64,000 nucleotides of DNA from Candidatus Marinacidobacterium sp. (GCA_965204755.1 OZ242011.1:3289656-3353655), one strand, 5' to 3'; numbered from the stretch's first letter, positions 1 to 21,652 are shown. The notes: generated by a model not told the origin, from the letters alone. A program made the numbers and translations.

Positions 1-1940
1 TGGGTGTGCCACCACCGGAACTTCCGGTAGTGGAGCCGGGCGGTGAGCGTCACCGGGCCGCGGACGCCTTCGGGTACCCGCACCCGGTAACGCACGGTGT
101 GGGCGGCGCCGGGGGGGATCTGCGAGACATAGAGGGCGGTGCGGGCGGCCCAGGCGTTCCGCTTGTCGATCGGGTTGCCGCGGGCGTCCAGCATCAGCGA
201 GCGGAAGAAGTGCGCGGAGGGTTCGACCGGCCCGTCTCCCGGGTCATCGGGCGGCGGCCCGGAGGCGCCCGCGGCGGGCTCGGTGAAGCCGCTCCGGAAG
301 AACGGCCGGCCGTCCCGGTCGTCGGCGCGGAACTCCAGCCAGACATCGTGGGCGTCCACCGTGCCGCTCGGGAAGAAGTGGCCCACATTCCGGGTGCGGA
401 CGACCACATCCACCCGCACGGTCTCGCCGGGGCGCAGCGCGGCGCCGGCCTCGTCGAGCGGGGCGGTCAGCGTCCCGGGCGCTCCCGCCGGTCGGTAGCG
501 CGCCGGGGCGGCGGAAGCCTCCTCCCCCACCGCGAAAGTCGAGGCCAGCGCCAGCGGGTCCGCGCTCGGCTCGACGGCCGCTTCGATCGGGCCCTCGTCG
601 TTCCTGGTGAGCGCGAAGATGTCCACCGTCACCTGGCCGGCGCGGAGGAAGTCCCGAACCGCTTCGAGTTGCCGGTCGAGGCCGAAGTGGGTCGGCAGCG
701 CGGTGTTCGCGGCGGCGAACCGGTGGGAGCGGACGAGTCCGTCCGGCGCCGCCGGGTCCTCGCCGGCGACGGCGGGCATGTGGCAGTCGGCGCAGGTGCG
801 GGGCTCTTCCGGGTAGTAGAAGGAGCGCGCGCCCTCGCCGGAGACGCCGCTCGCCTGCCAGTTGTCGTAACTGTTGAAGCCGCGCAGCCACCGGTAGGAG
901 TTCACCGGCTCGTCGAGATGCACCTTGTGGCAGGTGGAGCAGAACGCGGAACTGTCGCCGGTGTGGAGCGGCTTCAGAAAAGCGCGGCGGTGCGGTTCCG
1001 GGTCGAGGTGGAGGACGAGGTCGTGGAGCGTCCGGAGCAACGGGTCGGCGGAGGCCGCGAGGTCGTGCATCTCCGGGTACTCGATGACGAATCCGGCGTT
1101 CCCGGAGGTGTCCTTCACGCGGGTGACCGCGTGGCAGGAGACGCAGGCCAGACCGGCGCTCGCCGCCGGGAGGTCGACGATTTCGGCGAGCGGGCGATCC
1201 ATCAACCCGGAGAAGAGGACGGCGTGGTCGTGGCAGCCGGCGCACCACTTGGACGGCGTCACGCCGACCACGCTCTGCATGTATTCGATGGATCGCCGGT
1301 ACCAAGGGTTGTTGAACGAGGCGAACCGGTGGGCGGACTCGGCCCACTGTTCGGTGATGTCGGCGTGGCAGCGGCCGCAGGTCTCGCTCTCCAGGAAGAA
1401 GTCCTCGGGGATCAGTCCGCCGTGGGCGGTCTCGGCGGCGCTCGGGAAGAACGGGCCGTCCGCTCCGCCCATCGCTTCCCCGGACATCGCCGCCGGCGGG
1501 AGACCGGCGTTCAGCACCGGCCCCGGGGAGGGCAGGTAGTCCCGGAGGAGGCCGCCGACGGGGATCGAGACCGCGACCAGCAGCGGGGCGAGCAGGATGC
1601 GCCGACGGGCGAGGAGCGCGGCGAGTCCGGCGGCGGCGGCGAGGTGCGCCCACAGGAGCGGGCGGGTCGTCGGAGTGGCGCCGAGGACGAGAAGACTCAG
1701 GCCGGTGGCGAGGAGAACGCCGCCGGACAGGAAGAAGAGCGGGCGGAGCGGGTCGGCGCGGAGCGCCGGGCCCACCGTCCGCCGGGCCCAGATCGCGAGT
1801 TTCAGCGCGCCGATCCCCAGCAGCGGGTGCAGCAGGATCTGCGCGGCGTGGAAGAGGCTCGCCTCTTCCGCCGCCAGCAGGTAGCCGGAGTTCAGCGCGG
1901 CGAGCCCCCCGGCGACGAACAGGGCTCGGCTGCGAGTCAT
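1..1940 (-). CDS. membrane-anchored multiheme cytochrome c (5' portion; gene runs off window start)
   Basis: Minus-strand frame read from the reverse complement gives an N-terminal TM region followed by five CXXCH motifs (CGRCH, CAGCH, CVSCH, CSTCH, CADCH). The ATG overlaps the DedA stop (ATGA). Not in the ORF track because it has no in-window stop. Confidence 0.6.
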   Translation of the reverse strand, partial: MTRSRALFVAGGLAALNSGYLLAAEEASLFHAAQILLHPLLGIGALKLAIWARRTVGPALRADPLRPLFFLSGGVLLATGLSLLVLGATPTTRPLLWAHLAAAAGLAALLARRRILLAPLLVAVSIPVGGLLRDYLPSPGPVLNAGLPPAAMSGEAMGGADGPFFPSAAETAHGGLIPEDFFLESETCGRCHADITEQWAESAHRFASFNNPWYRRSIEYMQSVVGVTPSKWCAGCHDHAVLFSGLMDRPLAEIVDLPAASAGLACVSCHAVTRVKDTSGNAGFVIEYPEMHDLAASADPLLRTLHDLVLHLDPEPHRRAFLKPLHTGDSSAFCSTCHKVHLDEPVNSYRWLRGFNSYDNWQASGVSGEGARSFYYPEEPRTCADCHMPAVAGEDPAAPDGLVRSHRFAAANTALPTHFGLDRQLEAVRDFLRAGQVTVDIFALTRNDEGPIEAAVEPSADPLALASTFAVGEEASAAPARYRPAGAPGTLTAPLDEAGAALRPGETVRVDVVVRTRNVGHFFPSGTVDAHDVWLEFRADDRDGRPFFRSGFTEPAAGASGPPPDDPGDGPVEPSAHFFRSLMLDARGNPIDKRNAWAARTALYVSQIPPGAAHTVRYRVRVPEGVRGPVTLTARLHYRKFRWWHT

Positions 1941-2758
1941 CGGTCGGCTGCGGGGCCTCTTCCGCGGTCGTCCGGGCCGCCGCCGCGCCGGGCGGGGCCG
2001 GCCTCGCCGCGCGGATCGCCCTCGCCGAGGCGAGGCGGCTGGCCGTCGGCGTCGGCGTCCGAGGCGAAGTCGAGGTTCGCGCCGGCGGTTTCGACGCCCG
2101 CTTCGCGGAGCGCTCGTCGGGCGGTCCGGGTGATGAGCACCGTGGCCGCCACGAACGCGGCGAGTCCGGCGAGGCGGAGCGCCAGTTCCGCGGTCTCGGT
2201 TTCGCCGGACACCGCGGCGCTCGCGCTCGCGCCGATCGTGATGTAGAGCAGCGTTCCCGGCAGGATCCCGACCGCTGACGCGAGGAGGTAGCCGGGGAAG
2301 GGCGCGCCGGTGATGCCGTAGGCGTAGTTCAGCACCGTGAACGGGAAGACCGGGGTGAGCCGCGTGAGGAACACGATCTTCCAGCCCTCCTTGGCCACGG
2401 CGCGGTCCACCGCGGCGAACGAGGGCTTCGTGGCGAGCCACTTCGAGACCGCGTCCCGCGCGAAGCGGCGGGCGACGAGGAACGAGAGCGCGAGACCGGC
2501 GGTGGCGCCGATCCAGACGGAGAGCAATCCGGCGGCGACCCCGAACGCCCCGCCCGCGAGCAGGGTGAGCGCGGAACCGGGGACGGCGAAGACGGTGGCG
2601 ACGGCGTAGATGCCGGCGAAGACCGCGATGCCGAGCGGGCCGAGGCTCCGCGTCCACTCCGCCGCGGCGGTGACGCCGGCGCCGATCTCGTCGCCGAAGA
2701 ACACCAGCGCGGCGACGACCGGCGCGAGGATCGCGCCGATGCGGAGCGCGCGGCTCAT
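1937..2758 (-). CDS. DedA / TVP38-TMEM64 family membrane protein
   Basis: C-terminal part of track ORF 1937..3670 starting MSRALRIGAIL. Contains the DedA-type motif FLTRLTPVFPFTVLNYAYGITG. Start overlaps the stop of the upstream oxidoreductase. Confidence 0.75.
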   Translation of the reverse strand: MSRALRIGAILAPVVAALVFFGDEIGAGVTAAAEWTRSLGPLGIAVFAGIYAVATVFAVPGSALTLLAGGAFGVAAGLLSVWIGATAGLALSFLVARRFARDAVSKWLATKPSFAAVDRAVAKEGWKIVFLTRLTPVFPFTVLNYAYGITGAPFPGYLLASAVGILPGTLLYITIGASASAAVSGETETAELALRLAGLAAFVAATVLITRTARRALREAGVETAGANLDFASDADADGQPPRLGEGDPRGEAGPARRGGGPDDRGRGPAADR

Positions 2759-4257
2759 CGCCGCCTCCGGTACAGCCAGGAGAAGACCGCCTTCGCCTTC
2801 GGGGTGAGCCGCGTCCGTTGGTAGGCGTCCGCCGCGCGCTGGACGGCCTGCGCCCAGGTGGGGTAGCCGTGGATGGTGGAGGACAGGGAGGAGAGCCCGA
2901 CGCCGTGCCGCGCGGCCACCAGGATTTCGTGGAGGATCTCCCCGGCGCGGGGCGCGGCCACGGTGGCGCCGAGGATTCGGTCCTTGCCGCGCCGGGTCAC
3001 GACCTTCACGAAGCCGCGGGTGGCGTTCTCGGTGATCGCCCGGTCCAGGTCGGCGTTCTCGTGGCGGTGGACTTCCACCGGGATGCCCCGCGCCTCGGCG
3101 TCGGCTTCGGAGAGGCCGAAGTGGGCGATCTCCGGATCCACATAGGTCACCCAGGGGACCTGCCGGTAGTCGGCGCGGGCGCGGGGGACGGGCCGGGGGA
3201 GCAGGACATTCCGGACGACCAGCCGCGCCTGGTAGTCGGCGGTGTGGGTGAAGCGGTAGGGCCCGGTCACATCGCCGGCGGCGTAGATGTGGCGGACATT
3301 CGTGCGGAGCGCCGCGTCCACCGGGATTCCCCGGCGGGCGTCGTACTCGACGCCGGCGGCGTCGAGGCCGAGGTCGCCCACATTCGGCGTCCGCCCGGCG
3401 GCGAGCAGGAGCCGCTCCGCAGTGAAACGGCGTTCTTCGCCGCCGCTGCCGCCGCCGTCTTTCGTTCGGACGGAGGCCTCGACGGCGCCGTCTTCCAACT
3501 TCCGGAAACGCTCGACCCGGCAGTGGCGGACGACCTCGATGCCTTCGGCGGCGAAGGCCTCCTCCACCACGGAGGAGGCCTCCGGGTCGTCTCTGGGCAG
3601 CAGCCGCCCCACATCGGTGAGGATGGTCACGCGGACCCCGAGCCGGCGCATCACCTGTCCGAGTTCGCACCCGATGGGGCCGCCGCCGAGGATGAGCAGT
3701 GACTTCGGCGCCGTGTCCTGGCGGTCGAAGAAGGTCTCGTTCGTGAGGTAGGGGATGTCCGCGAGGCCGGGGATGTCGGGCGCGTACGGCCGCGTGCCGG
3801 TGGCGATCACGAAGTTCGCCGAGGCGAGCCTCCGGCCGTCGTCGAGTTCCACTTCGCCGGGGCTGACGAACCGGGCGCGGGCCTCGAAGACCTCCACGCC
3901 GAGCCCGCGGAACCGCTCCGGGGAGTCGTTGGGGGCGATCGCGGCGCGGCGCTCGCGCATGTGCTCGAAGACCCGTTCGAACCGGAACCGGGGCTCCGTC
4001 TCGTCGAGCCCGTGGTGTTCGGCGCTCCGGATCTGCTGGATGAGTTTCGAGGTGGAGACCAGCGCCTTCGAGGGCACGCAGCCGTAGTTCAGGCAGTCGC
4101 CCCCCATCTTCGCCGCTTCGACCAGCGCCACCCGCCCCCCGAGACCGGCGGTCCCCGCCGCGGAGACCAGCCCGGCGGTGCCGCCGCCGATGGCGACCAG
4201 GTTGTAGCGGGCGGGACGCGCCGATCCGGCGGGCGGCGGCGTGACGGATTCGCTCAT
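2755..4257 (-). CDS. class I pyridine nucleotide-disulfide oxidoreductase (mercuric reductase / dihydrolipoamide dehydrogenase-like)
   Basis: AIGGGTAG FAD-binding motif and redox-active disulfide CLNYGCVPSK; 500 aa. Confidence 0.8.
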   Translation of the reverse strand: MSESVTPPPAGSARPARYNLVAIGGGTAGLVSAAGTAGLGGRVALVEAAKMGGDCLNYGCVPSKALVSTSKLIQQIRSAEHHGLDETEPRFRFERVFEHMRERRAAIAPNDSPERFRGLGVEVFEARARFVSPGEVELDDGRRLASANFVIATGTRPYAPDIPGLADIPYLTNETFFDRQDTAPKSLLILGGGPIGCELGQVMRRLGVRVTILTDVGRLLPRDDPEASSVVEEAFAAEGIEVVRHCRVERFRKLEDGAVEASVRTKDGGGSGGEERRFTAERLLLAAGRTPNVGDLGLDAAGVEYDARRGIPVDAALRTNVRHIYAAGDVTGPYRFTHTADYQARLVVRNVLLPRPVPRARADYRQVPWVTYVDPEIAHFGLSEADAEARGIPVEVHRHENADLDRAITENATRGFVKVVTRRGKDRILGATVAAPRAGEILHEILVAARHGVGLSSLSSTIHGYPTWAQAVQRAADAYQRTRLTPKAKAVFSWLYRRRR

Positions 4258-4351
4258 GGGGGCCGGGGAAACTCTACCGGCGCGGGCCCCCCCGCCGACC
4301 GCTGCGGAGGCGCCGCGGGGGCGGTCGGGGCCGTTGGTAGATTCCGCGGCG

Positions 4352-5086
4352 ATGGAGCCGCGCGGCGCAACGGGTCGGCCCGGAGCGGCGCCGGGCCGCC
4401 GCAGCCGCCGCCTGATCCTCGGGCTGGACGAAGCGGGGCGGGGGCCGGCGCTCGGCCCGCTGGTGGTGGCGGGCGTGGCGCTCGATGTGCCGGCGGCCGC
4501 CGCCCTCCGGCGGCGGGGCGTGAAGGACTCGAAGGACTTCGGCCCCGGCGAGGAGGGGCGCGAGCGGCGGCGCGAACTGGCGGCGGAAGTGCGGAAGCGG
4601 GCGGCCGGCGTCTTCGTGCGGGTTCTCTCCGCCGCCGAAGTGGACCGCTATGTCGAAGTGCGCGGCCTCAACGCGCTGGAGCGCCGCGCCGCCGACGAGA
4701 TCGTCACCGAAGCCGGCCCGGCGCGCCGCATCGTGGCCGACGGCGCGAGGCTCTTCGGCCCCCTGGCCGGGCGGTATCCGCACCTCGAGGCGCTCGACCG
4801 GGGCGAGTCGCAGCACGCGGCGGTGGCCGCCGCCAGCGTGGTCGCCAAGGATCGGCGCGACGAGTTGTTCGCCGAAATCGCCGAGCGGTACCGCGCCGAC
4901 TTCGGCGAAGTGCGCGGCGGCGGCTATGTGAACCGCGACACCGAGGCCTTCCTCCGCCGCTTCCACGCCGCCCGCGGCCGCCTCCCGGAGGAGACCCGCC
5001 TCAGTTGGCGCTGGTCGGTCATCCGCGAGTTGAACGGCCAACCCCGATTGTTCGGCGGCGCCGGCGCCCCGGGCGGTGGCGCCTGA
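4352..5086 (+). CDS. rnhB: ribonuclease HII
   Basis: ILGLDEAGRGPALGPLVVAGV active-site motif, DSK, AASVVAK. Start taken at internal ATG (MEPRG) of ORF 4241..5086. Confidence 0.8.
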   Translation: MEPRGATGRPGAAPGRRSRRLILGLDEAGRGPALGPLVVAGVALDVPAAAALRRRGVKDSKDFGPGEEGRERRRELAAEVRKRAAGVFVRVLSAAEVDRYVEVRGLNALERRAADEIVTEAGPARRIVADGARLFGPLAGRYPHLEALDRGESQHAAVAAASVVAKDRRDELFAEIAERYRADFGEVRGGGYVNRDTEAFLRRFHAARGRLPEETRLSWRWSVIRELNGQPRLFGGAGAPGGGA

Positions 5087-5162
5087 CGGTTGCGGCAGCG
5101 GCCTCCCGAGGTTAGTGTTCCGGGTTGTGCGGGGGGCCCTGAGGGCGGCCTGCCCTCCCGCC

Positions 5163-6119
5163 ATGCGACGCACGGCCGCCGTTTTGAGCGAGGGCGGAGT
5201 CGTGACCGCGCTGGAGCGAGCCTACTACCGACAGGAGTTCCGGATCGCCCTCCTTGAAAAGGAGGGTCAGGAGTTCCAAGACTGGTTCTGTGAACTCGCT
5301 CGTCGGGCCATTGGGCCCGACTTCGAGCCCATCGGCCATGAAGGCGCACAGGGAGACCAGGCAGCTGACGGGCGTAGGCGGAGCGACGGCACCATCTTTC
5401 AGTGCTACGCTCCGCACACCGTCCGCGCAGATCGTGTCCGGCGAAAGATACGGGCCGACTTCGCGAGTGCCTTGCGACACTGGCCGAGGTTCCTGAAACA
5501 CTGGGTCTTCGTGCACAACATCAGGCGTGGCTTGGGCCCCACTGCGAACAAGGAGTTGGATGCACTTGGAAGAGAGTATCCTGCGGTGAAGATCGCGACT
5601 TGGTCGAAGCCGGAGTTGACGGAGCTCTTCGATCAGTTGGAACTCGCCGACTGCGAGTGGTTGTTCGGTCCTGCTCCATCGGCGGAAGACTTGGAGGGCG
5701 TCACGCCGGCGCATGTCGCGGAAGTGATTGGCCACTTGGAGCAGACCAAGCCCGAGCCGGGCAGGGAGCCGCTCGCGCCGCCGTCGGTGGACAAGATCGA
5801 GAAGAACGATCTCTCGCCCGATGTACTCGACCTGCTCCGCGCGGGTAAGCGCAAGGATTACTTGACGGAGCGGTACTTCGAGAAGGAACCGGGTCCGGAG
5901 GCCGGAGAGCGAGTCGCGGAAGCGTTTCGGCAGCGTTACGCATCACTCAAGGAGAGTGCCGAGTCACCTGACGACATCTTCGCCGGACTCCAGAGATTCG
6001 CCGGACACGGGGGCAGCCCCAAGCACCAGGTGGCGGTACTGGCCGTTCTGTCCTACTTGTTCGACCGCTGTGACATCTTCGAGGATCCGCGCGGCGTGGT
6101 TCCGGGTCGTCCGGTGTGA
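5163..6119 (+). CDS. Lamassu/ABC-3C-type effector component (LmuA-like), domain unassigned
   Basis: First gene of a three-gene lower-GC cassette ending in an SMC-like ATPase. Possible degenerate PD-(D/E)xK-like segment (GDQAADG...IFQCY). Confidence 0.5.
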   Translation: MRRTAAVLSEGGVVTALERAYYRQEFRIALLEKEGQEFQDWFCELARRAIGPDFEPIGHEGAQGDQAADGRRRSDGTIFQCYAPHTVRADRVRRKIRADFASALRHWPRFLKHWVFVHNIRRGLGPTANKELDALGREYPAVKIATWSKPELTELFDQLELADCEWLFGPAPSAEDLEGVTPAHVAEVIGHLEQTKPEPGREPLAPPSVDKIEKNDLSPDVLDLLRAGKRKDYLTERYFEKEPGPEAGERVAEAFRQRYASLKESAESPDDIFAGLQRFAGHGGSPKHQVAVLAVLSYLFDRCDIFEDPRGVVPGRPV

Positions 6120-6343
6120 TCCTTCCGACGAAGCACATGCGCCCGTACCGCAGCCTCTTGGGGCTCGGCGCGACGATTCTGGACACGATCACGCGGCCGA
6201 TGACCGTTTCCGCGCTCTGGGATCGGTTGCGAAGGGCGTCACATCCCGGACTGAGTTACGGATGGTTCATCCTCGCGCTGGATCTGCTCTACATGATCGG
6301 CGCCATCGACTTTCGTCGCGGTCTCCTCGTTCGCGCGAAGTAG
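6116..6343 (+). CDS. small middle component of Lamassu/ABC-3C-like cassette (LmuC-like)
   Basis: 75-aa ORF whose GTG start overlaps the upstream stop (GTGA) and which sits 10 nt upstream of the ATPase gene. Gene order matches effector-small-ATPase systems. Confidence 0.45.
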   Translation: MILPTKHMRPYRSLLGLGATILDTITRPMTVSALWDRLRRASHPGLSYGWFILALDLLYMIGAIDFRRGLLVRAK

Positions 6344-6353
6344 TGCTTGAAGA

Positions 6354-8117
6354 ATGATCCGCAAGGTCACCGCCGACCGGTCGTCGTTCAAGACGCTCGA
6401 ATTCCAGTCAGGGCTGAACATCCTTCTCGCGGACCGAAGCGAGAGCGCCACCGACAAGGATTCCCGGAACGGCGCCGGAAAAACCAGCCTTGTGGAGTTG
6501 ATCCACTTCGTGTTCGGGGCCAGCGCTTCGGGGACCATTTTTCGGTCGAGAGATATCGGAGACTGGCGGTTCGGCGTGGAGATGGAGGTCGACAACGAGC
6601 CGGGATCCGTCATGCGCTCGGGTCGGCGTGCGGAAGTAGTCGAAGTCTCCGGTTCCCTCGTTCCTGGCGACCACGATGAGCAGCCGAGACTCATGGGGCC
6701 GGCCCCTCAGGTGGCCGTGCCCATCGGACAGTGGAAGGCTGGTCTCGGGGAAAGGTGGTTCGGCTTGGTACAAGAGGGCGAAGCAGTTGATCCGTTCGCT
6801 CCCCGTTTTCGACCGCTGTTTTCGTACTTCGCTCGCCGGCAGGCAAAGGGCGCCTTCAACAGCCCGATGCAGTACTGGTCGAGACAGCCGGTCTGGGAAG
6901 AACGCGTTTCCATCTCGTGGCTCTTGGGACTCGACTGGACAGTCGCTCAGCGTCTTCAGCGACTTCGTGAGCGCGAGAAAGGTGTAGACGATGCGATGAA
7001 AGCGATCGAGTCCGGTGAACTGCCTGTGCTCTCGCGCACTGCGTCGGAATTGCGGACTGCTCTCACGGTGGCGCGGGGAGAAGCGCACACGAGAAAACAG
7101 CGACTCCATGCCTTTCGCGTGTTGCCGGACTATGAAGACTTGGAGAAGGAGGCGGACTCGATTACCGTCCAAATCAACGACATCGCCGGGGACAACATCG
7201 CGGATCGCGCGTTGCTTCGAGACCTCGAGACTTCATTGGGTGGCGAAACAGACGACATGCATCCGGAGATTCAGCGACTCTACAAGGAGGCGGGAATCGT
7301 GTTGCCGGGTGCGACCCTGCGTCGGCTCGCCGAGGTGGACACCTTTCATCGCGCGGTCGTTCGGAACCGCAAGAGCCAACTGAAGGACGCTATCGAGAGC
7401 GCGAGAGAGCGGATCGTCGGGCGAGAGCGACGGAAGGAGTCGCTCGATCGGCGAAGGAGGAAGATCATGAAGGTCTTGGAGTCGGGGGGCGCATTGGCGG
7501 AGTACAGTGCGCTCCGAGAGGAGGTCGCTCGACGCGAGGGGGAGGTGGAGGTCCTTGAACAGCATCTGCGGAACGCGGAAGAGATCGAGGGCCGTCGGGC
7601 TGCGCTGAAGGTCGAGCGAGCCAGTTTGCTCAAGGCCGTGCAAGACGACATAACCGAACGAGGAGAGCATCTTCAGGAGGTGATTCTTCGCTTCGAGCGA
7701 CTGTCGCAATCGCTCTACGAGAGGGCCGGGCGCCTGCACATAGCGCCCAGCAACTCCGGACCGAAGTTCGAGGTGCAGATTCACTCCGGGCGGAGTCTCG
7801 GCATCACGAACATGCAGATCTTCTGTTTCGACTTGATGCTGATGGACTTGATGGTCGAGCGGGGGCAATCGCCGGGGTTCCTCATCCACGACAGCCACCT
7901 GTTCGACGGCGTCGATGAACGGCAGGTGGCGCGGGCGCTGCAGGTGGGCGCGCGCCGGGCGGAGGCCGGCGGGTTCCAGTACATCGTGACGCTGAACACG
8001 GACAAGATACCCAAGGACGGGTTCGATCCGGGGTTTCGGCTCGACGACTACTTCTTGGATGTGCGCCTTACCGACGCTCTTCCCGACGGGGGGCTGTTCG
8101 GGATTCGTTTCGATTAG
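6354..8117 (+). CDS. SMC-like ABC ATPase (LmuB / DUF3732-like)
   Basis: N-terminal GLNILLADRSE...NGAGKTSLVELIHFVFG Walker A, long central coiled-coil, C-terminal FLIHDSHLFDGVDERQ Walker B/D-loop; 587 aa. Confidence 0.65.
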   Translation: MIRKVTADRSSFKTLEFQSGLNILLADRSESATDKDSRNGAGKTSLVELIHFVFGASASGTIFRSRDIGDWRFGVEMEVDNEPGSVMRSGRRAEVVEVSGSLVPGDHDEQPRLMGPAPQVAVPIGQWKAGLGERWFGLVQEGEAVDPFAPRFRPLFSYFARRQAKGAFNSPMQYWSRQPVWEERVSISWLLGLDWTVAQRLQRLREREKGVDDAMKAIESGELPVLSRTASELRTALTVARGEAHTRKQRLHAFRVLPDYEDLEKEADSITVQINDIAGDNIADRALLRDLETSLGGETDDMHPEIQRLYKEAGIVLPGATLRRLAEVDTFHRAVVRNRKSQLKDAIESARERIVGRERRKESLDRRRRKIMKVLESGGALAEYSALREEVARREGEVEVLEQHLRNAEEIEGRRAALKVERASLLKAVQDDITERGEHLQEVILRFERLSQSLYERAGRLHIAPSNSGPKFEVQIHSGRSLGITNMQIFCFDLMLMDLMVERGQSPGFLIHDSHLFDGVDERQVARALQVGARRAEAGGFQYIVTLNTDKIPKDGFDPGFRLDDYFLDVRLTDALPDGGLFGIRFD

Positions 8118-8743
8118 CCGGGCGCCGCCGGGAGGGCGGCGCGGGCGGCGACGGTGTCGATGTGCCGCTGGGCGGCGGGTTCGAGGGAGCGGTTGTAGAG
8201 GAGGGCGGCGGGGTGGTAAAGGGTGATGAAGTCGTGGCGGGGCCAATCGGGGAGGCGGAAGAACTCGCCTACGGTTTCGGATAGCGGGCGGCGGGCGCGG
8301 TTCGGGGAGAAGCGGCGGAGAGCCGTGGCGCCGAGTAGGGCGACGATGCGCGCGGGGGACAGGGCCAACTGGCGGTCGAGGAGGGGGCGGCAGGCGGCGG
8401 CTTCCTGTTTGGTCGGGGCGCGGTTCTTGGGCGGGCGGCATTTCACGACATTCACGATGAGGACATCGCGTTCGGTGGAAAGGCCGGCGGAGTGGAAGAG
8501 GGCGTCGAGAGTCTTTCCGGCGCGGCCTACGAACGCTCGGCCGGAGGCGTCCTCGAAGGCGCCGGGCGCTTCGCCCACGGCGAGGATCGGCGCTTGGGGG
8601 TTGCCGCGATCCACCACGATGTGCGTGCGCCCGTCCGCCAGGGGGCAGCGGCGGCAGGCGCTCGCGGCCAGCAGGTCGTGGAACGCGGAGTAGTCGGTGG
8701 CCGTAAGCGCCCGCCCGACGGCGTCCGGCGGGCGCCTCGTCAT
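8114..8743 (-). CDS. uracil-DNA glycosylase, family 4
   Basis: GEAPGAFEDASGRAFVGRAGKTL motif and conserved C-terminal HP. Convergent with the LmuB-like gene. Confidence 0.8.
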   Translation of the reverse strand: MTRRPPDAVGRALTATDYSAFHDLLAASACRRCPLADGRTHIVVDRGNPQAPILAVGEAPGAFEDASGRAFVGRAGKTLDALFHSAGLSTERDVLIVNVVKCRPPKNRAPTKQEAAACRPLLDRQLALSPARIVALLGATALRRFSPNRARRPLSETVGEFFRLPDWPRHDFITLYHPAALLYNRSLEPAAQRHIDTVAARAALPAAPG

Positions 8744-10832: not shown

Positions 10833-11798
10833 TTACTCCGAGGGCCCGATGCTCGGCTGCGGCTGCGAGGACGGCGGCCGCCAGAGCGGATCCCCGGACT
10901 GCCGCTCGCGGATCCACCGCCTCAACGGGACATCCTCCGGCTGCGGTTGGTACCACCCGACTTCCGTGCGGCCGTCGCCGAGCAGTTGCCGCAGCACCGG
11001 GTCGCACCGGTCGAGCAGTTCCGCCGGCATCGCCCGGTAGTCCAGCGGCCGCAGCCAGCGGTAGGAATACCCGAAGAAGAGCGCCTTCCGCACGACCTCC
11101 GACTCGTTCGTCCCGTGCCGGTGCCAGAGCCGGCGGTCGAAGATCACCGCGTCGCCGGGGCGCGCCCGGAGCGACTTCTTCCCGTCCCACTCCGGGTCGT
11201 CGCACTCGGGCGGCGGGGCGTCCAGGCGGTGGCTGCCGGGGACGAGTTCCATAGCGCCCCGCGCCGGGCCGCGGGTGTCGGTGAGCCAGTAGGCGACCTT
11301 CACCGAGAGGCGCGGCGCCGGGCGCTCCAACTCGAGCACCGGGCGGCCGCTGTCCTGATGCCACACCGGTTCGCGGCACTGCTCGCCGCCCCACGGCTCC
11401 GGGGGATAGACCACCAGGTGCGAGATGTACAACTGGATGTTCCAGCCGAGGACGCTCCAGACCTTGGGAAGCGTCCGCGCGTGAGTCACGAGTTCCAGGA
11501 ACGCGGGGTCGAAGCGGATCGTCGCGAAGCGGGACATCATGTCCCCGCGGGCGAGGTCGAGTCGCCGCCGCTCGGCGGCGTCGAGGCGGTCCGCCGCTTC
11601 GAGCAGGCGCCCGGTGTGTTCGGCGGTGAGCGCGCCCGGGATCTCCAGGTAGCCGTCGCGGTCGAAACGCGCGATCTCGTCGGCCGTCGCCGCGTGTTCG
11701 AGGTGTTCGTCCGTCAGTCCGGGGAACCGCCGCCCGTCGAGCGGGAAGAGCACCCGGTCGTCCACCGGCTCCACCGGCGGGGCCACGAGCCGGCTCAT
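10833..11798 (-). CDS. phytanoyl-CoA dioxygenase (PhyH) family Fe(II)/2OG oxygenase
   Basis: VWHQDSG ... HRHGTNES motifs. Start placed at internal ATG (MSRLV). Confidence 0.7.
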
Positions 11799-11865
11799 GC
11801 GGTTCGACGAGGTTTCGGCTGGCTGGCGGGCGGGAGGGCGGGCGGAGGCGGCTAGTATTGCGGAA

Positions 11866-12540
11866 GTGAGTCGGCGGCGTCTTGCGCTGCTGCTGGCGTG
11901 GGGGCTGCTCCTCGCGCTGGGCGGCAGCATCTACTTGGGCCCGTATTTCGCCGCTTGGAGCATCCGCCGGGCGGTGGCCGCCGGGGACGCGGAAGCGCTC
12001 CACGACTTCGTGGACTTCGAGGCGGTGCGGGAGAACCTGAAGGGCGAACTGCGGCGCACCGTCGGCGCCCGGCAACGGCAGGCGGCGGCCGCGCCCGAGC
12101 CGCCCGCGGACGACGGGAGTCCCGAACCGGCCCCGGAACCGGCGCCGGCCGAGGCCCCGCTGACCGACCTGGGCGCTCGCCTCGCGGTGACGGTCGGGGA
12201 GACGATGATCGACCGCTTCGCCACGCCGGAGGGCGTGGACCGGGCGCTTCGCTCCGGGGCGGCCCAAGGAGGCGGCGACGGCTGGTCGTCGTTCTTGGAC
12301 CTCGGCGGCGACCGCGGGAGCGAGGGCGGCGGCGACAGCGGCAGCGGCAGGGGCGGGATCGAGGTGCGCGCCGGCTACGACGGCTGGAACGACTTCGCGG
12401 TGCGGCTGGGCGTCGAGGCGGACGCCGCCGACGAAGCGCCGATCTGGGCGGACATCCTGTTCGAGCGGCGCGGGATCTGGGCGTGGCGGGTGACCGGCGC
12501 CCGGGTCAGCCCGGACGCGATCTCCCTGCTCGTTCGCTGA
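11866..12540 (+). CDS. DUF2939-family protein
   Basis: YLGPYFAAWSIRRAVAAGDAEAL...VDFEAVRENLK pattern. GTG start chosen to avoid overlapping the divergent PhyH gene. Confidence 0.5.
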   Translation: MSRRRLALLLAWGLLLALGGSIYLGPYFAAWSIRRAVAAGDAEALHDFVDFEAVRENLKGELRRTVGARQRQAAAAPEPPADDGSPEPAPEPAPAEAPLTDLGARLAVTVGETMIDRFATPEGVDRALRSGAAQGGGDGWSSFLDLGGDRGSEGGGDSGSGRGGIEVRAGYDGWNDFAVRLGVEADAADEAPIWADILFERRGIWAWRVTGARVSPDAISLLVR

Positions 12541-12543
12541 CCC

Positions 12544-13473
12544 TCACTCGGCGGCCAGCCGGGCGGCGGCTTCCGCCCGCGTCGGGATCCCGGCCGTTCC
12601 CGGCGACTCCACGGTCAGGGCGGCGGCCGCCGCGGCGAGCCGGGCGGACTCCTCCGGAGGAGAGTCCCGGCGCCACAGGCCGAACGCCAGCGCCGCGGCG
12701 AACACATCCCCGGCGCCCGTCGGGTCCGCGACCGCAGCCTCGACCGCCGGAACCGGCAGGGCCGGCGCCTCCCGGCGGAGGATCACCGCGCCGGCGGCGC
12801 CGCGCGTGACGGCGAGGGCCGGACGCCCGGTCCGAGCCGCCTCGAGCCAGGACCGGGCGCCGGCGGCGCGGGACTCCTCGTCGCTGAGGCAGACCAGGTC
12901 CATTTCGGCGAGTCGCTCCGCGAATCCGCCGGACGCGGCGAGGGTGACCGATCGGCTGCGTCGGGCCGTCCGGCGGAGCAGGCCCTGCGGGATCGCCGCG
13001 GCGAAAGCCCCGCGTCCGGGAGGCCGGGGAAACCGGCGGACGCGGGAGAGTTCCGAGGTCACCGGCGCGAAGACGGCGAGCGAGCCGGGGGGCAGCGCGA
13101 GCGCCGCCTCCCGGAGCGCGCCCGCCGGAATCGGGTCGGCGCGGCCCAGCAGCCGCTGGCGCCGCGTCCCGTCGGGGAGGTAGCGATTCTCGAACCTGGT
13201 GCGTTCGCGGGACTGCATCCAGTCCACCGGGATGCCGGGGAGGTCGTCGAGGTAGGGGAATCCGGGGTCGATCGCGGTGAAGATCCGCACCCGGACGCCC
13301 CACCGGGAGAGCAGCAGGGCGGCGTAGGCGGCGGCGCCGCCGAGCCTCGGGCCGTCCGGGGTCAGGTCCTCGGTGAGGTGTCCGACGACCAGGGCGCGGG
13401 GTTCGCGCGCCGGCGGCTTCCCGTACCCTCCGCCCGCCCGCGGTTCCCCGGTGCTCGTCTGGACTTCGCTCAT
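12544..13473 (-). CDS. PfkB-family carbohydrate kinase (ribokinase-like)
   Basis: C-terminal DPTGAGDVFAAALA motif. Confidence 0.75.
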   Translation of the reverse strand: MSEVQTSTGEPRAGGGYGKPPAREPRALVVGHLTEDLTPDGPRLGGAAAYAALLLSRWGVRVRIFTAIDPGFPYLDDLPGIPVDWMQSRERTRFENRYLPDGTRRQRLLGRADPIPAGALREAALALPPGSLAVFAPVTSELSRVRRFPRPPGRGAFAAAIPQGLLRRTARRSRSVTLAASGGFAERLAEMDLVCLSDEESRAAGARSWLEAARTGRPALAVTRGAAGAVILRREAPALPVPAVEAAVADPTGAGDVFAAALAFGLWRRDSPPEESARLAAAAAALTVESPGTAGIPTRAEAAARLAAE

Positions 13474-14056
13474 CGCCCGCGAGAAGCGGCGCTCCCTGCT
13501 ATCCGCCGGCGGCGCGGTGATCGGCGGCCTGTTGTTCTGGCACCTGGGCGGGTTCTACGGGTGGTCGCTGCCGTGGACGATCGGGGCGGTGGCAGTGGGC
13601 GCGCTCGTCCTCCGGTCGGTCGGGTCGGCGCTGTTCTTCCTCTCGCGGCATCCGTTCGCGGTCTGCGACTTCGGCCTGAGCGAGGCGGCCGTTCCCGGCG
13701 GGGCGGTGCGCTGCGCCGCGCGCATCGTCGCGCGCCGCCCGGTCGCCGCCGCCGCCGTCCGATTCTCGCTCACGGCGGAGAGCCGGGGCGCGTCGCGGGA
13801 GACGCGGCGGCTGTTCTCGGCGGAGCGGGAGGCGGCGCGGGCGGTCGCCCTCGAAGTCGGGAGGGAGTTCGAGGAGGAGGCCGACCTGCCGGTGCCCGAG
13901 GACGCGCCGTTCTCCTACCGGTCGTTCGAGGGGCGCCTGCGCTGGCTGGCGCGGGCGGAAGTCGCGGTGGAGGGTTACGGGACCTTCGCCGAGGAGATCG
14001 AGGTGCTCATGGCGCCGCCGCCTCCGGAGGACCCGGAGGGCGAAGTCGGGGAGTAG
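13449..14056 (+). CDS. hypothetical membrane protein
   Basis: Hydrophobic N-terminal segments in ORF 13373..14056. Start uncertain. Confidence 0.3.
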
Positions 14057-14934
14057 CGGTAGCCGACCGGCGCCAGGAGCCGCAGGGTGTCCGGGGAGCG
14101 GGTGATTTCAACCGGGGCGGGGGCGAAGGCGTCGCCGTCGCACTGGCAGAGCGGCGCCTCCGCCGAGTTTTCGGCCGGGACGATCCGCGCGGCCGCGGCT
14201 CGCGCCACCCGGACGCCGGGGAGGCGGGGCAGGTGGCCGAGGGCGGCTGCGGCGGCGACCGGCGGGATGGCGAAACGGTGGCGCGGGCCTACCAGCGTCG
14301 CCACGAAATCCGGGTGTTCGATCCGCGCGCCCGGAAAGAGCGGAAGCCACCGGGTGTAGCGCGACTGCGTCCCGACGCCGGCCCACGCGGCGGGAACCGG
14401 GTCGCTCCAGTCCCCGGCGCCCGCCGCCGGAGCGATCCGGACGCGAAGTTCGGGGACCGGCGACCCGAGGAAGACGCGCGCTCCCTCGACCGCCCACCGG
14501 GCGAGGCCGCCGCGCCGCTTCGTCCGCGCCCCGACCCGCCGCGCGGTCGCGGCGTCGAGCCCCACGCTGCAGATCGAGAGGAACAGGCGCTCCTCCGGCG
14601 CCGGCGCGGGGGCGCCCGTCTCCATCGGGGCCCCGGACGGAGCGGCGGGGCCGGCTCGGCGGGCGAGCCCCGGGCGGACGGCGAGGACCCGGCCGGCGAC
14701 CAGCGCCGCCACCGCGCGGGATTCCTCGGCGGGGACGCCGAGTTCGCGCGCCAGCACATTCACGGTGCCGCCGGGGAGCGGGGCGAGCGCGGTATCGCGG
14801 TTCAGGAGGCCGCGGGCGGCCTCGGCGAGGGTGCCGTCCCCGCCCCAGCAGAAAACCGCCGCCGCCCCGGCGTCCGCGTGCCGCCGGGCCAGCGCCTCCG
14901 CATGGCCGGGCGCGGTCGTGGGCGTTTCCTCCAA
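13975..14934 (-). CDS. diacylglycerol/lipid kinase catalytic-domain protein (YegS-like)
   Basis: GGDGT motif. DAGK-like homology (ARAALVWNPAAGRRKSERRLRRIREAFRRAG) continues upstream of the TTG start with no canonical start codon (see findings). Confidence 0.65.
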   Translation of the reverse strand: MEETPTTAPGHAEALARRHADAGAAAVFCWGGDGTLAEAARGLLNRDTALAPLPGGTVNVLARELGVPAEESRAVAALVAGRVLAVRPGLARRAGPAAPSGAPMETGAPAPAPEERLFLSICSVGLDAATARRVGARTKRRGGLARWAVEGARVFLGSPVPELRVRIAPAAGAGDWSDPVPAAWAGVGTQSRYTRWLPLFPGARIEHPDFVATLVGPRHRFAIPPVAAAAALGHLPRLPGVRVARAAAARIVPAENSAEAPLCQCDGDAFAPAPVEITRSPDTLRLLAPVGYRYSPTSPSGSSGGGGAMSTSISSAKVP

Positions 14935-15113
14935 GGGGATTCCGGCCCGGCGGAACGCCTCCCGGATGCGGCGGAGGCGGCGCTCGCTCTTCCGGCGCCC
15001 GGCGGCCGGGTTCCAGACGAGGGCGGCGCGGGCGCCCGCCGGGAACGCCGGCGACTCCGCCGGCGGGGGGAGGGGCGGCCCGGCGCCGGCGGGCTCGGGG
15101 GGTCGGGACGCGG

Positions 15114-15815
15114 TCAGCGCAGTTGGACGACCAGCGCGTCGTAGCCGAGCGCCCGGAGTTGGCGCCGGATCCGGTTCGCCTCCGCGCGCTCGGCGTAGCG
15201 GCCGACCCGCACCCGGTGGACGCCGCCGTCGGTCTCGCTGACCGAAGCCGGGTAGCCGGCGGCCCGGATCGCCTCCGCCAGCCGCGCCGCTCCGCTCGCC
15301 GCCCGGAATGCGCCGGTCTGGACGGTGAAGACCGAGGCCGGCGCGCGCTCGACGATGGTCACCGACACCGGCGCGACGCCCCGCGCCACGATGCCCAGCC
15401 GGCGGGCCGCTTCGTGGGAGAGGTCGATGATCCGGCCGGGGCTGAAGGGGCCGCGGTCGTTGATCCGCACGCGGACGCTGTTCCCGGTGTCGCGGTCGGT
15501 GACTTCCACCACGGTGCCGAAGGGCAGCGTCTTGTGGGCGGCGGTCATGGCGCCGGGATCCATGGGTTCCCCGTTCGCGGTCGGTCGTCCGCGCTCCTCG
15601 ATGCCGTACCAGGAGGCTTCGCCGAACTCCGTCGCTCCCGGCGTGCCGACGGTCGCCGGGGCTCGCCGGGTCCCGGCGCAGCCGGCGGTCAGGGCGAGCG
15701 CCGTCGCGGCCGCCGCGAGACGGGCGGCGAGCGCGCGGCGGCGGCCCCGGCGATGCCGGACGCGCGGCGAACCGGCGGGCGCTCCCCCGCTCCGTTTCGT
15801 CATTCCGGTCGTCAT
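15114..15815 (-). CDS. rlpA: septal ring lytic transglycosylase RlpA-like (DPBB + SPOR domains), lipoprotein
   Basis: GEASWYG...GRPTANGE...[10 protein letters not shown]...[12 protein letters not shown] motifs, then a C-terminal SPOR-like region. Lipobox LTAGC. Start at internal ATG. Confidence 0.75.
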
Positions 15816-18165: not shown

Positions 18166-18443
18166 CCGCCGGCGAAACTGTCCAAATGGCGCCCGGGGCG
18201 CCAGCCGGGAAACTCGCCCCCGCCGGCGCGCCGCCGGACGGGCGCGCCGCGCCCCGGCCAACAGGCGCCGCCCGGAGATGTCGGCGCGCCGGAAACCGCT
18301 GTCGTCCCCGGGTTCCGCAGGAACGCGGTCTCGTCTTCAGCGGCCCGGGCCTGTCTGCTGAACGGCCTTGAACCGGATCTCCGCGACATTCCGATTTCCC
18401 GACCGCTATCGACCGACGACTCGATACCCGAGTGAGACGACTG

Positions 18444-21411: not shown

Positions 21412-21578
21412 CCCGGCGAGTCGGGCGCCGGCAGCCGACCGCACGCCGGGGAGAAAGGACCTCGGGCGGCGGGTCTCGGCGGGTCGGAAAGTGGTCGGCA
21501 TCACGAAACCTCCGGCGGAAGGCGCGGGCGGGCGGCGCAGCGGCGTGGGAGGGGCCGCGAGGAAGCGGCGCGTCGGCG

Positions 21579-21652
21579 TACGCCTGGCAGGACTCGAACC
21601 TGCGACCTACGGATTAGGAATCCGTCGCTCTATCCGCCTGAGCTACAGGCGC
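21579..21652 (-). tRNA. tRNA-Arg (anticodon CCT)
   Basis: Reverse complement folds as a cloverleaf: acceptor GCGCCUG/CAGGCGU, D-arm GCUC/GAGC, anticodon stem ACGGA/UCCGU with loop UUCCUAA, T-arm GCAGG-UUCGAGU-CCUGC; 74 nt, no encoded CCA. Confidence 0.85.

Follow-up and report, generated by a model that had tools for sequence, protein, structure and literature searches.

A horizontally acquired islet carrying a putative anti-phage ABC-3C cassette between two DNA-repair genes of Candidatus Marinacidobacterium

Results

The window analyzed here, 64,000 nucleotides from Candidatus Marinacidobacterium sp. (GCA_965204755.1 OZ242011.1:3289656-3353655), contains a horizontally acquired islet of foreign DNA that carries a putative anti-phage cassette between two DNA-repair genes. 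The cassette belongs to the CTD10/MC6/DUF2326 (YydD) subtype of ABC-3C systems, with three intact open reading frames on the plus strand that encode an effector, a 75-aa middle component and a 587-aa ATPase. It corresponds to the PADLOC candidate system PDC-M68. As such the cassette is ordinary, one more copy of a catalogued candidate subtype, and the sole part without annotation is the effector's putative killing domain. The initial annotation had proposed a three-gene Lamassu/ABC-3C-like cassette in this islet, and this is borne out by matches to CTD10, MC6 and DUF2326, each above its curated Pfam cut-off, and by the empty site in a relative.

An inserted islet between rnhB and a uracil-DNA glycosylase gene

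The islet (5087..8129, about 3.0 kb, with no strand assigned) is present in the window and missing from a syntenic relative. Its GC content of 0.625 is the lowest of all 3-kb stretches in the 64 kb (mean 0.721, sd 0.035), in agreement with the earlier remark that the region is richer in AT than its surroundings. Along positions 5250-8000 the GC content is 0.59-0.65, compared to 0.70-0.79 in the flanks, and the cassette has a GC3 of about 0.75, versus 0.86-0.92 in neighboring genes.

Pfam labels also uphold the expected neighbors. On the left is the RNase HII gene rnhB (4352..5086, plus strand; PF01351 on orthologous genes), and on the right is a gene for a family-4-type uracil-DNA glycosylase, or UDG (8114..8743, minus strand; PF03167). 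The syntenic relative without the cassette (L115) was reached through MCM homologs; in a metagenome scan with the UDG as query, all relatives found had at most 45% identity. In blastn against L115, similarity ends at window position 5014 and restarts at 8130. Because rnhB and the UDG gene are separated by a gap of only 41 bp in this relative, the cassette is a true insertion.

The insert also rewrote the C-terminus of a neighboring protein. The C-terminal tail of the UDG is encoded within the inserted DNA: in L115 the protein ends in AARAGLP, and the window version has an extra AAPG before the stop. In two related loci (L082 and L092), the UDG has about 27 extra residues, encoded antisense to the 3' end of the ATPase gene. 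The stop of the ATPase and that of the convergent UDG overlap in the window, in the sequence TTAG at 8114-8117. On the other side, the final ~10 residues of RNase HII are unlike those of the empty-site relative.

The cassette occupies one shared chromosomal site in five related genomes, and this site stays fixed, with no integrase, among genomes of the clade whose flanking proteins are down to 74-88% identity. Near the islet there is no integrase and no tRNA, direct or inverted repeats at its edges are not above chance, and a promoter and terminator consensus search at the cassette gave nothing of note. Between the window and L092, dS is 1.1-1.5 for the cassette and 0.46-0.63 for the flanks, which could reflect allele replacement at the site or merely weaker codon bias. 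The locus offers a clean natural case of a defense cassette without a mobility gene, inserted between two convergent core genes, with an empty site in a relative.

Gene content and distribution of the cassette

The three genes had been described as encoding 318, 75 and 587 aa with an overlapping middle frame, and the frames are as given, although the effector probably starts further downstream. The effector gene (5163-6119, plus strand) encodes 318 aa from an ATG; CTD10 is the only family found on it and on its 64 homologs. Alternative GTG starts lie at 5076 (347 aa) and at 5202 (305 aa), the latter with GAGGG 7 nt upstream. Homologs are about 300-305 aa long and their starts align to window residues 14-17, so GTG 5202 is the likelier start. 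The effector stop and the start of the middle gene share 4 nt (GTGTGA). The middle gene (6116..6343, plus strand) encodes 75 aa from a GTG, or possibly 68 aa from ATG 6137. Its product matches PF20293 (MC6) at residues 3-73 (3.9e-21, 75.3 bits; cut-off 27.2), and its PGAP name is 'ABC-three component system middle component 6'. The ATPase gene occupies 6354..8117 on the plus strand.

RefSeq PGAP names for the orthologs are of the form 'ABC-three component system protein / middle component 6'. None of the three proteins falls into an NCBIfam family, and the only PHROGs match is that of the ATPase to a family of unknown function. ABC-3C systems, with Pfam families CTD1-12 and MC1-8, were reportedly described by Krishnan, Burroughs, Iyer and Aravind in NAR in 2020. 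The elements that define such a system (Pfam/Krishnan 2020) are all present here: an ATPase with a coiled-coil insert, an MC-family gene, an effector that ends in a CTD, and an operon conserved in unrelated genomes.

In particular, of 80 related loci, 77 keep the two effector domains, the middle component and the ATPase in the same collinear order; the loci represent Acidobacteriota, Alpha- and Gammaproteobacteria, Chloroflexota, Spirochaetia, Latescibacterota and Binatia. Of the other three, two run off a contig end and one (L034) has a truncated effector. An MC6 gene sits between effector and ATPase in all 80 (one partial, at a contig edge). The dN/dS values, 0.04-0.30 across the three genes (0.13-0.28 for the effector and 0.04-0.30 for the middle gene), indicate that all three are under purifying selection.

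Elsewhere, the cassette is found in mobile and defense settings. On a conjugative element, an identical cassette adjoins a tyrosine integrase, and its left flank occurs in four different versions. Other copies adjoin HipA toxin-antitoxin genes and methyltransferase plus ResIII genes, or lie between IS elements, and the cassette is present on 31 plasmids. PDC-M68 in fact owes its nomination as a candidate to its position inside BREX, DISARM or type I restriction-modification systems. No genome in a phage genome collection encodes the ATPase.

The ATPase belongs to the DUF2326/YydD family

The ATPase is an ABC ATPase with a coiled-coil insert. Residues 1-586 align to positions 1-581 of the 581-position PADLOC model PDC-M68B (2.7e-158, 526 bits), PF10088 (DUF2326) matches at 1.6e-40, and 1434 homologs are found at E<=1e-10. 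The Walker A motif RNGAGKTS (residues 38-45; 6465..6488, plus strand) has R38, N39, G42 and K43 invariant across 41 homologs. In the AF2 model (pLDDT 84), the secondary structure places the coiled-coil insert at about residues 195-455 (6936..7718, plus strand), with a conserved apex near residues 297-319. The protein has a single cysteine, C491, and neither a CxxC zinc hook nor a hinge. Within the coiled coil, residues 288-405 give a CTD10-like Pfam match (4.4e-10). The effector tail and this coiled coil both match CTD10, but by hhalign the two families are not similar, so we do not treat them as homologous.

Invariant or nearly invariant columns mark a signature-like motif, S481-x-G483-I-x-N-M-Q-I-F-C-F-D493, and the Walker B/D-loop (together 7794..7925, plus strand). 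The latter, FLIHDSHLFDGVDERQ at residues 509-524, is near-invariant across the family and begins with F509-L-I-H-D513-S, an hhhhDS form in which the aspartate has no glutamate after it. A Walker B of the form hhhhD[Q/S/T/E] has been described for short LmuB (bioRxiv 10.1101/2025.04.02.646746).

The predicted fold of the ATPase most resembles that of B. subtilis YydD, with solved LmuB structures next and Rad50 and SMC proteins after them. The best Foldseek match in the PDB is YydD (9a6c_A, 1e-22), followed by LmuB chains from five Lamassu entries (9uxh_F, 9hqx_B, 9hqu_A/B, 9nyg_B and 9ux7_A; 3e-12 to 9e-10); below these are Rad50 (9e-10), Smc5/6, SbcC, SMC, JetC and MukB. In sequence, the best PADLOC LmuB model reaches 1.4e-9 (35.8 bits), and PDB searches with phmmer and with a profile gave no LmuB match and nothing meaningful. 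Pfam SMC_N scores 0.022, and NCBIfam repair equivalogs fall far under their cut-offs. No DUF3732 match is listed by Pfam at E<=1, in a search where matches weaker than about 0.1 may be missing.

The initial annotation had described a Walker A, a long coiled coil and a C-terminal Walker B in a DUF3732/LmuB-like layout. The three elements are present, but by sequence the protein is DUF2326/YydD rather than DUF3732/LmuB. Of the profiles that it had named for a check, DUF3732 and DUF4297 did not match, and the ABC-3C models did. It had also said beforehand that an ATPase grouping with SMC or RecN, in loci without synteny, would speak against the assignment; YydD and LmuB come first, and synteny holds in the 77 loci.

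The effector couples a CTD10 domain to an N-terminal domain of predicted restriction-endonuclease-like fold

The effector model (AF2; pLDDT 85.7, pTM 0.83) has two domains. The C-terminal one is the all-helical coupling domain CTD10 (residues 185-307; 5715..6083, plus strand), which matches PF20275 at 2.9e-16 (60.7 bits; cut-off 28.1), as do all 63 homologs, and has five or six predicted helices in residues 219-302. PADLOC model PDC-M68A also matches (3.4e-19), but only over its positions 119-251 of 253, and the N-terminal part differs.

The N-terminal domain (residues 15-180; 5205..5702, plus strand) is alpha/beta, with the order helix-strand-strand-strand-helix-strand in the model. It carries the signature G64-D65-x-[K]-x-D69-G70 ... 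Q80-x-Y82-x-P84 ... K95-x3-D99 ... W114-x4-N119. The canonical D...(D/E/Q)xK catalytic motif is absent, and strand beta3 has Q80-x-Y82 in its place; 130 of 132 representatives share the Tyr. Lysine is instead conserved at K67, in the GDxK loop, and at K95, on helix alpha2, but not on beta3. K67 is 96% conserved (Lys in 126 of the 132), and the window effector has Ala at this position.

We predict a restriction-endonuclease-like fold for this domain, although the statistics are marginal. The PDB match of highest Foldseek probability is EcoO109I (0.91, E 0.1), with E>=0.1 throughout the PDB. In BFVD, four phage proteins named 'Restriction endonuclease' match with probability 1.00 (E 0.015-0.058, rmsd 3.5-4.9 Å), and E-values for the match set run from 2e-3 to 6e-2. 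No LmuA chain is among the best 50 PDB matches of the effector model, and a PDB sequence search with the effector profile gave nothing meaningful.

Membership in Mrr_cat (PF04471) was tested and rejected. The hhalign score against an 11-sequence Mrr profile is 15.9 (E 0.08), a value reached or surpassed by 11 of 40 block-shuffled profiles, and the comparison with EcoKMrr (E 0.05) is no better than shuffled controls. With hmmscan, Mrr_cat has no match at E<=10 in the 63 homologs, where matches weaker than about 0.1 may be missing. By eye, the motifs of the N-domain and Mrr look collinear (GDxxxDG, FxGA, hhFhxx), which we keep as a lead only.

Protein clusters with this domain number 1023, and in some of them it forms the N-terminus of NACHT, NB-ARC-WD40, TPR or PIN proteins. 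Since it also heads NACHT, NB-ARC and TPR proteins, it is a shared, widespread effector module rather than a one-off. The earlier description of the effector, as not of a textbook type and with a weak PD-(D/E)xK-like trace, is partly right: the N-domain has no Pfam match in any of 63 homologs, there is no DUF4297/Cap4, and the predicted fold is restriction-endonuclease-like. The domain is not a rare new variant, however: it is the standard partner of its ATPase clade, occurs in those 1023 clusters and also sits on STAND NTPases.

A possible, if doubtful, reading is that this domain of ~165 residues represents a catalytic family, of restriction-endonuclease fold, that has yet to be described. 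The signature of the family would be GDx[K/G]xDG...QxYxP...Kx3D...W...N, with an invariant Tyr for the usual beta3 Lys, and it would serve as a portable 'death' module on ABC-3C and STAND proteins, giving the CTD10/MC6/DUF2326 branch an output chemistry of its own. With an unannotated domain in about 1000 clusters and on STAND NTPases, a single biochemical characterization would annotate many proteins.

Discussion

We propose that the cassette is a horizontally acquired ABC-3C anti-phage or anti-plasmid conflict system with a Lamassu-like release mechanism, and we give this reading a probability of about two in three. The mechanism is modeled on solved Lamassu complexes, and its inferred elements are the formation of a complex, its trigger, a nuclease activity and abortive infection. 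The Rad50-like ATPase would dimerize and, together with the 75-aa middle component, keep one effector inactive, with the effector's CTD10 sequestered at the ATPase coiled coil. The ATPase heads may detect abnormal DNA of an invading replicon, such as free ends or replication intermediates, and slow ATP turnover, with a Walker B of hhhhDS form, would let the effector go. Once released, the effector would oligomerize via its C-terminal domain, which would switch on the restriction-endonuclease-like N-domain and lead to DNA damage and aborted infection.

Several observations count against parts of this proposal. For a Lamassu-like system, they are LmuB HMM scores of only ~1e-9, the lack of any LmuA, LmuC, Cap4 or DUF3732 profile match, and an MC6 middle component of just 75 aa. 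For the nuclease, they are the marginal fold E-values, QxY for (D/E/Q)xK, Ala67, and an Mrr comparison at the level of shuffled controls. In addition, the cassette has no integrase in the window's clade, and its chromosomal site there is fixed despite diverged flanks.

The alternative that survives best, though we consider it unlikely, leaves the architecture and release logic unchanged but makes the N-domain something other than a DNA endonuclease. It would cut RNA, hydrolyze a nucleotide or cofactor, or act through a non-catalytic interaction, with an output unlike that of Cap4- or Mrr-type Lamassu. The absence of a sequence-profile tie to any nuclease family, QxY in place of QxK, the 11 of 40 shuffled profiles that match or beat the Mrr_cat score and the marginal Foldseek E-values all fit this view. 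However, PD-(D/E)xK-type nucleases (EcoO109I, EcoT38I, Hef, Can2, phage restriction endonucleases, endonuclease I and Vsr) make up almost all of the highest-probability fold matches from two independent libraries, and the invariant D65, D69, Y82, K95 and D99 lie on beta2, beta3 and alpha2, the elements that form restriction-endonuclease active sites. A non-catalytic adaptor is further disfavored in that the EAD families in Pfam give no match.

A domesticated or partly disabled relic, long fixed and with an effector weakened by K67A so that abortive infection is lost, is more improbable. Ala67 is confined to the window effector and its 95% relative, and K67A takes two nucleotide substitutions. 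The effector N-domain also evolves fastest (dN 0.12-0.13 versus 0.04 for the ATPase, window against L082 and L089), and there is no mobility gene at the site shared by the five genomes. Against this, every reading frame is intact, dN/dS between the two K67A carriers is 0.07-0.21, N-domain included, and the window keeps all signature residues other than K67. Moreover, Gly67 occurs in five other lineages that keep the remaining invariant residues, so at least some members can do without K67.

Finally, a housekeeping Rad50/SbcC/RecN-like module for DNA repair or chromosome maintenance, belonging with rnhB and the UDG gene, would fit the location amid two DNA-repair genes, the significant fold matches to Rad50, Smc5/6 and SbcC and the stable position within the clade, but is very improbable given that the cassette is wholly missing from the syntenic relative, is foreign in composition, has identical copies on conjugative elements and plasmids, and encodes an ATPase that matches YydD and LmuB ahead of Rad50 and SMC, with SMC_N at only 0.022, no hinge or zinc hook and no NCBIfam repair equivalog match.

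Comparison with known systems

The proposed ABC-3C conflict system is nearest to the CTD10/MC6 subtype itself (PDC-M68), with which the window cassette shares all family models, gene order and PGAP names, with no difference at the family level. In contrast to the ABC-3C and PDC-M68 models, the N-terminal 170 residues of the window effector lie outside every Pfam, NCBIfam, PHROG and PADLOC model. Our literature search found no experiment on the CTD10/MC6/DUF2326 subtype.

Within B. subtilis YydB-YydC-YydD, YydD is the best structural match of the window ATPase (E 1e-22, TM 0.57 over the full length). Both are Pfam DUF2326, and JGI calls homologs 'YydD (DUF2326 family)'. PDB entry 9a6c is an integrative YydD-YydB model from cross-linking MS, whose title documents a physical ATPase-effector pair. 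YydD and the window ATPase share only 19% identity, however, and YydB is presumably a metallophosphoesterase-type effector, unlike the window's N-domain.

The window N-domain is predicted to have the alpha-beta-beta-beta-alpha-beta order of Mrr-type (PF04471) and other PD-(D/E)xK effector domains of Lamassu-Mrr and Avs/STAND proteins, and it takes the same N-terminal position on ABC-3C and STAND proteins. Mrr-type domains have QxK, whereas the window domain has QxY, no Pfam match, and a conserved Lys on alpha2 (K95) in addition to the GDxK loop. Chromosomal SMC, RecN and Rad50-SbcC proteins differ from the window ATPase, which has no hinge and no CxxC and finds its best match elsewhere.

Lamassu type II/DdmABC (LmuA-LmuC-LmuB), known from cryo-EM of the V. 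cholerae and S. enterica systems, likewise has three genes, in which a Rad50-like ATPase is accompanied by a small protein and an effector-CTD protein. The window ATPase resembles short LmuB in its 587-aa length, its hhhhDS Walker B and the absence of CxxC, and in Lamassu type II the effector ends in a helical bundle, as predicted for the window effector. Where Lamassu type II has CTD7, MC3 and DUF3732, the window has CTD10, MC6 and DUF2326, with a middle component of 75 aa and an effector domain that is not Cap4; LmuA, LmuC and Cap4/DUF4297 profiles from Pfam and PADLOC match neither the effector nor the 75-aa protein. The literature places type II Lamassu and ABC-3C in one superfamily, and validated Lamassu systems belong to ABC-3C in their own right (CTD7/MC3, CTD12, PF20276/PF20289). 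Given its CTD10-MC6-DUF2326 (YydD) subtype, the window cassette would be a sequence-distant branch of the Lamassu superfamily. Sequestration, release and tetramer formation have been described for Lamassu (bioRxiv 10.1101/2025.03.14.643221 and 10.1101/2025.04.02.646746), and because the DUF2326/YydD branch is, by predicted structure, nearer to LmuB than to Rad50 or SMC, this sequestration-and-release model is directly testable there.

The islet carries a CTD10/MC6/DUF2326 cassette

Three co-directional ORFs occupy 5163-8117 (+) of the window, between rnhB and the uracil-DNA glycosylase (UDG) gene: an effector of 318 aa (5163-6119, +), a middle ORF of 75 aa (6116-6343, +) and an ATPase of 587 aa (6354-8117, +). 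The effector and middle ORFs share 4 nt (GTGTGA), and the stop codons of the ATPase and of the convergent UDG gene overlap as well (TTAG, 8114-8117). Because effector homologs are about 300-305 aa long, with starts aligning at window residues 14-17, and because GAGGG lies 7 nt upstream of the GTG at 5202, a product of 305 aa appears more likely than one of 318 aa. The lower GC content reported in the initial annotation is borne out: it is 0.59-0.65 in the islet versus 0.70-0.79 outside, and no 3-kb stretch of the window is lower in GC than 5087-8129 (0.625 versus a mean of 0.721, sd 0.035). At third codon positions, GC is about 0.75 in the cassette versus 0.86-0.92 outside.

The effector C-terminus matches Pfam CTD10 (2.9e-16), the 75-aa protein matches Middle Component 6 (MC6, 3.9e-21) and the ATPase C-terminus matches DUF2326 (1.6e-40), all over the curated thresholds. 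These matches uphold the initial proposal of an ABC-three-component (ABC-3C)/Lamassu-superfamily cassette. Public annotation names the orthologs ‘ABC-three component system protein’, ‘ABC-three component system middle component 6’ and ‘YydD (DUF2326 family)’. In PADLOC, model PDC-M68B covers the ATPase end to end (2.7e-158), and PDC-M68A matches the effector in its C-terminal half alone. The more specific idea of a DUF3732/LmuB-like ATPase gives way to DUF2326 and PDC-M68B: the Pfam search of the cassette proteins lists no DUF3732 match at E ≤ 1, and the PADLOC LmuB models reach only about 1e-9. The LmuA, LmuC and Cap4 models gave no matches among the cassette proteins in the PADLOC search.

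The islet is a horizontally inserted ABC-3C/Lamassu-superfamily cassette. Its domain matches place it in CTD10/MC6/DUF2326 (PADLOC PDC-M68), a known candidate subtype that has been catalogued computationally, and outside the DUF3732 LmuB systems. The set of 145 ‘phage defence candidates’ includes PDC-M68, which was nominated because BREX, DISARM or type I RM systems were seen to have the cassette embedded in them (bioRxiv 10.1101/2024.01.29.577857).

The CTD10 model matches not only the effector tail (5715-6083, residues 185-307, 3e-16) but also the ATPase coiled coil (7215-7568, residues 288-405, 4e-10), and does so in every homolog. Profile-profile comparison of the effector-tail and ATPase families shows no similarity, and the double match may stem from the model itself, for instance through coiled-coil bias, and not from common ancestry.

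The ATPase groups with YydD and LmuB

The ATPase features named initially are all present: the P-loop RNGAGKTS, the long helical insert and FLIHDSHLFDGVDERQ, each nearly invariant across the family. The apex of the coiled coil lies near residues 297-319. Neither phmmer nor a 21-sequence profile found a sequence-level match in the PDB. We also searched the PDB by Foldseek with an AlphaFold2 model of the ATPase (41 homologs, pLDDT 84). Bacillus subtilis YydD ranks first (9a6c_A, from the YydD-YydB integrative model, E 1e-22), followed by LmuB chains of Lamassu systems in five entries (9uxh, 9hqx, 9hqu, 9nyg and 9ux7; 3e-12 to 9e-10), with Rad50, Smc5/6, SbcC, SMC, cohesin, JetC and MukB below them. 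The alternative that the ATPase is a chromosomal SMC or RecN relative is disfavored because YydD and LmuB are placed ahead of Rad50 and SMC.

The cassette is an insertion and is mobile elsewhere

At the same RNase HII/UDG-MCM site, the cassette also occurs in four related metagenome lineages, whose ATPases are 56 to over 92% identical to that of the window. A further relative (L115; MCM 83% identical, 2.1-Mb contig) has an empty site, in which extended synteny is kept on both sides and the convergent UDG and RNase HII genes lie 41 bp apart. Nucleotide homology between the window and this empty site ends at 5014 and restarts at 8130, and therefore the window has about 3.0 kb of extra DNA, which corresponds exactly to the three genes and identifies the islet as an insertion. 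We found no repeats, integrase or tRNA at its borders.

The insert has also rewritten the ends of its neighbors. UDG ends in ...AARAGLP* in the empty site, and the tail is 4 residues longer in the window (UDG gene 8114-8743, -) and about 27 longer in two of the lineages with the cassette (L082 and L092). These extra residues are antisense to the ATPase 3′ end and are coded by inserted DNA (8114-8129 in the window).

Purifying selection acts on all three cassette genes (dN/dS 0.04-0.30). Between the window and L092, at the same site, dS is 1.1-1.5 for the cassette versus 0.46-0.63 for flanking core genes, a two- to threefold difference. Recombination may have replaced the allele, or the codon bias of the cassette may simply be weaker.

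In another relative (L116, MCM 81% identical), RNase HII is replaced downstream of UDG by two hypothetical genes and a 600-aa NsnB/AriA/OLD-like ABC ATPase (11257-15190), and a pair of type III MTase and ResIII genes lies upstream (465-6545). From this one case, the neighborhood of UDG in this lineage may be a variable defense locus.

Relatives of the ATPase number 333 in a one-genome-per-species collection and 1434 clusters (E ≤ 1e-10) in a large protein collection. The order of effector N-domain, effector C-domain, middle component and ATPase is kept in 77 of the 80 best loci, so the three genes are syntenic elsewhere, as the initial reading required; two exceptions lie at a contig end, and the third (L034) has a truncated effector. 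Hosts include Acidobacteriota, Alpha- and Gammaproteobacteria, Chloroflexota, Spirochaetia, Latescibacterota and Binatia. One identical ATPase protein occurs in 103 index blocks. In the 23 carrier contigs examined, tyrosine integrase and excisionase-like HTH genes precede the cassette on a conjugative element (TrbL, VirB8, CagX, TrbI, ArdC, ParB), with four different left flanks. Another copy adjoins a HipA toxin-antitoxin pair and an MTase plus ResIII pair. On a Bryobacterales chromosome (L098, 7148-9761), the cassette is flanked by IS110 and ISAZ013 transposase genes, and its effector is truncated to 204 aa and its MC6 shortened to 53 aa, an apparent case of decay. The cassette is present in 31 plasmid records, and a search of a phage collection found it in none. 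One ortholog from a cultured strain lies on Phaeobacter piscinae P36 pP36_b (NZ_CP010645.1, 6415-9322).

Two other stretches of the window carry defense-type genes. A 381-aa ABC ATPase (18432-19577, +; PADLOC HEC-01A 7e-56, Pfam AAA_21/AAA_15) lies within a patch of lower GC (18.0-20.5 kb, 0.647-0.665 versus 0.72); a tRNA-Arg(CCT) is at 21578-21652 (-). No partner gene for this ATPase was identified, and the patch may be a second defense-type islet. A third defense-type islet has a 1307-aa type IIG restriction-modification enzyme (31066-34989, +; PADLOC REase_MTase_IIG 1e-127, DrmMI 1e-65; Pfam Eco57I) followed by a 1093-aa SNF2-type helicase (35003-38284, +; HKD+Snf2 4e-38, DrmD 8e-27). It includes a lower-GC patch (32.0-35.3 kb) and is possibly DISARM-like.

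The effector N-domain is a widespread module

The effector N-domain (residues 15-180) is the sole part of the cassette without a description in the libraries queried. Across 63 homologs, no Pfam model matches it at E ≤ 10, in line with the initial view that this is not a textbook effector domain, and no NCBIfam, PHROGs or PADLOC model reaches it. In an AlphaFold2 model of the effector (63 homologs, pLDDT 85.7, pTM 0.83), the N-domain is alpha/beta, in the order helix-strand-strand-strand-helix-strand-helix-strand, and is followed by the CTD10 bundle of five or six helices.

A weak PD-(D/E)xK-like trace had been noted in this domain. The highest-probability Foldseek matches in both libraries are indeed nucleases of this type: EcoO109I (probability 0.91), EcoT38I, Hef, Can2 and Cap4 in the PDB, and in BFVD four phage ‘Restriction endonuclease’ proteins (probability 1.00, E 0.015-0.058, rmsd 3.5-4.9 Å over 128-150 columns), as well as endodeoxyribonuclease I, a PD-(D/E)XK protein and Vsr. 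However, no match reaches E ≤ 1e-3, and support for a PD-(D/E)xK-nuclease-like predicted fold is therefore marginal. On beta3, an invariant tyrosine takes the place of the usual catalytic lysine. LmuA is absent from the 50 best PDB matches of the model. We rejected filing the domain under Mrr_cat: the motifs look alike by eye, but hhalign scores against EcoKMrr and an 11-sequence Mrr profile were matched or beaten by 11 of 40 shuffled profiles.

Conservation across 131 cluster representatives yields the unusual signature G64-D65-x-K67-x-D69-G70, F-Q80-x-Y82-x-P84, K95-x3-D99, W114 and N119. Lys67 is present in 126 of 132 representatives, and only the window and its 95% relative have alanine (5361-5363), a change that requires two nucleotide substitutions. 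Inactivation of the window effector would be possible but is not indicated, because five other lineages have Gly67 and keep all remaining invariant residues, and because N-domain dN/dS between the two Ala67 genes is 0.21.

Among 1.84 billion cluster representatives searched with the window's N-domain, 1023 clusters matched (E ≤ 1e-3). Its carriers are ABC-3C effectors of about 300 aa and proteins of 470-1480 aa, which have it at their extreme N-terminus, followed in Pfam terms by NACHT + HEAT, NACHT/nSTAND, NB-ARC + WD40, TPR arrays or TPR + PIN, the last being the TPR-GreAB-C-PIN system. The extreme N-terminus is the place of death/effector domains in STAND-type immune proteins, and the N-domain taking this position supports an effector role independently of the ABC-3C context. 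These carriers show the domain to be common and shared with STAND NTPases, and not a rare variant.

Comparison with Lamassu systems

Reviews count ABC-3C within the Lamassu superfamily, and under the same nomenclature the validated Lamassu systems belong to ABC-3C: Vibrio cholerae LmuA carries CTD7, with MC3 as its LmuC, Bacillus LmuA carries CTD12, and a lactococcal system has PF20276/PF20289. In the solved systems, LmuA is kept monomeric, its C-terminal domain sequestered at the coiled coil by two copies of LmuB and one of LmuC; DNA ends are bound by the heads, and hydrolysis of ATP then releases LmuA, which tetramerizes via its C-terminal domain into the active nuclease (bioRxiv 10.1101/2025.03.14.643221, 10.1101/2025.04.02.646746). 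Given its architecture and ATPase fold, the window cassette probably follows the same sequestration-and-release logic, with the REase-like N-domain as the putative toxic output.

Lamassu LmuC is much larger than the 75-aa MC6 of the window. The features described for short LmuB (bioRxiv 10.1101/2025.04.02.646746) are seen in the window ATPase: at 587 aa, it has a Walker B of the form hhhhD-S, not hhhhD-E, and lacks a CxxC zinc hook, with one cysteine in the whole protein. Within the DUF2326 branch, the YydD-YydB PDB entry provides a documented pairing of ATPase and effector.
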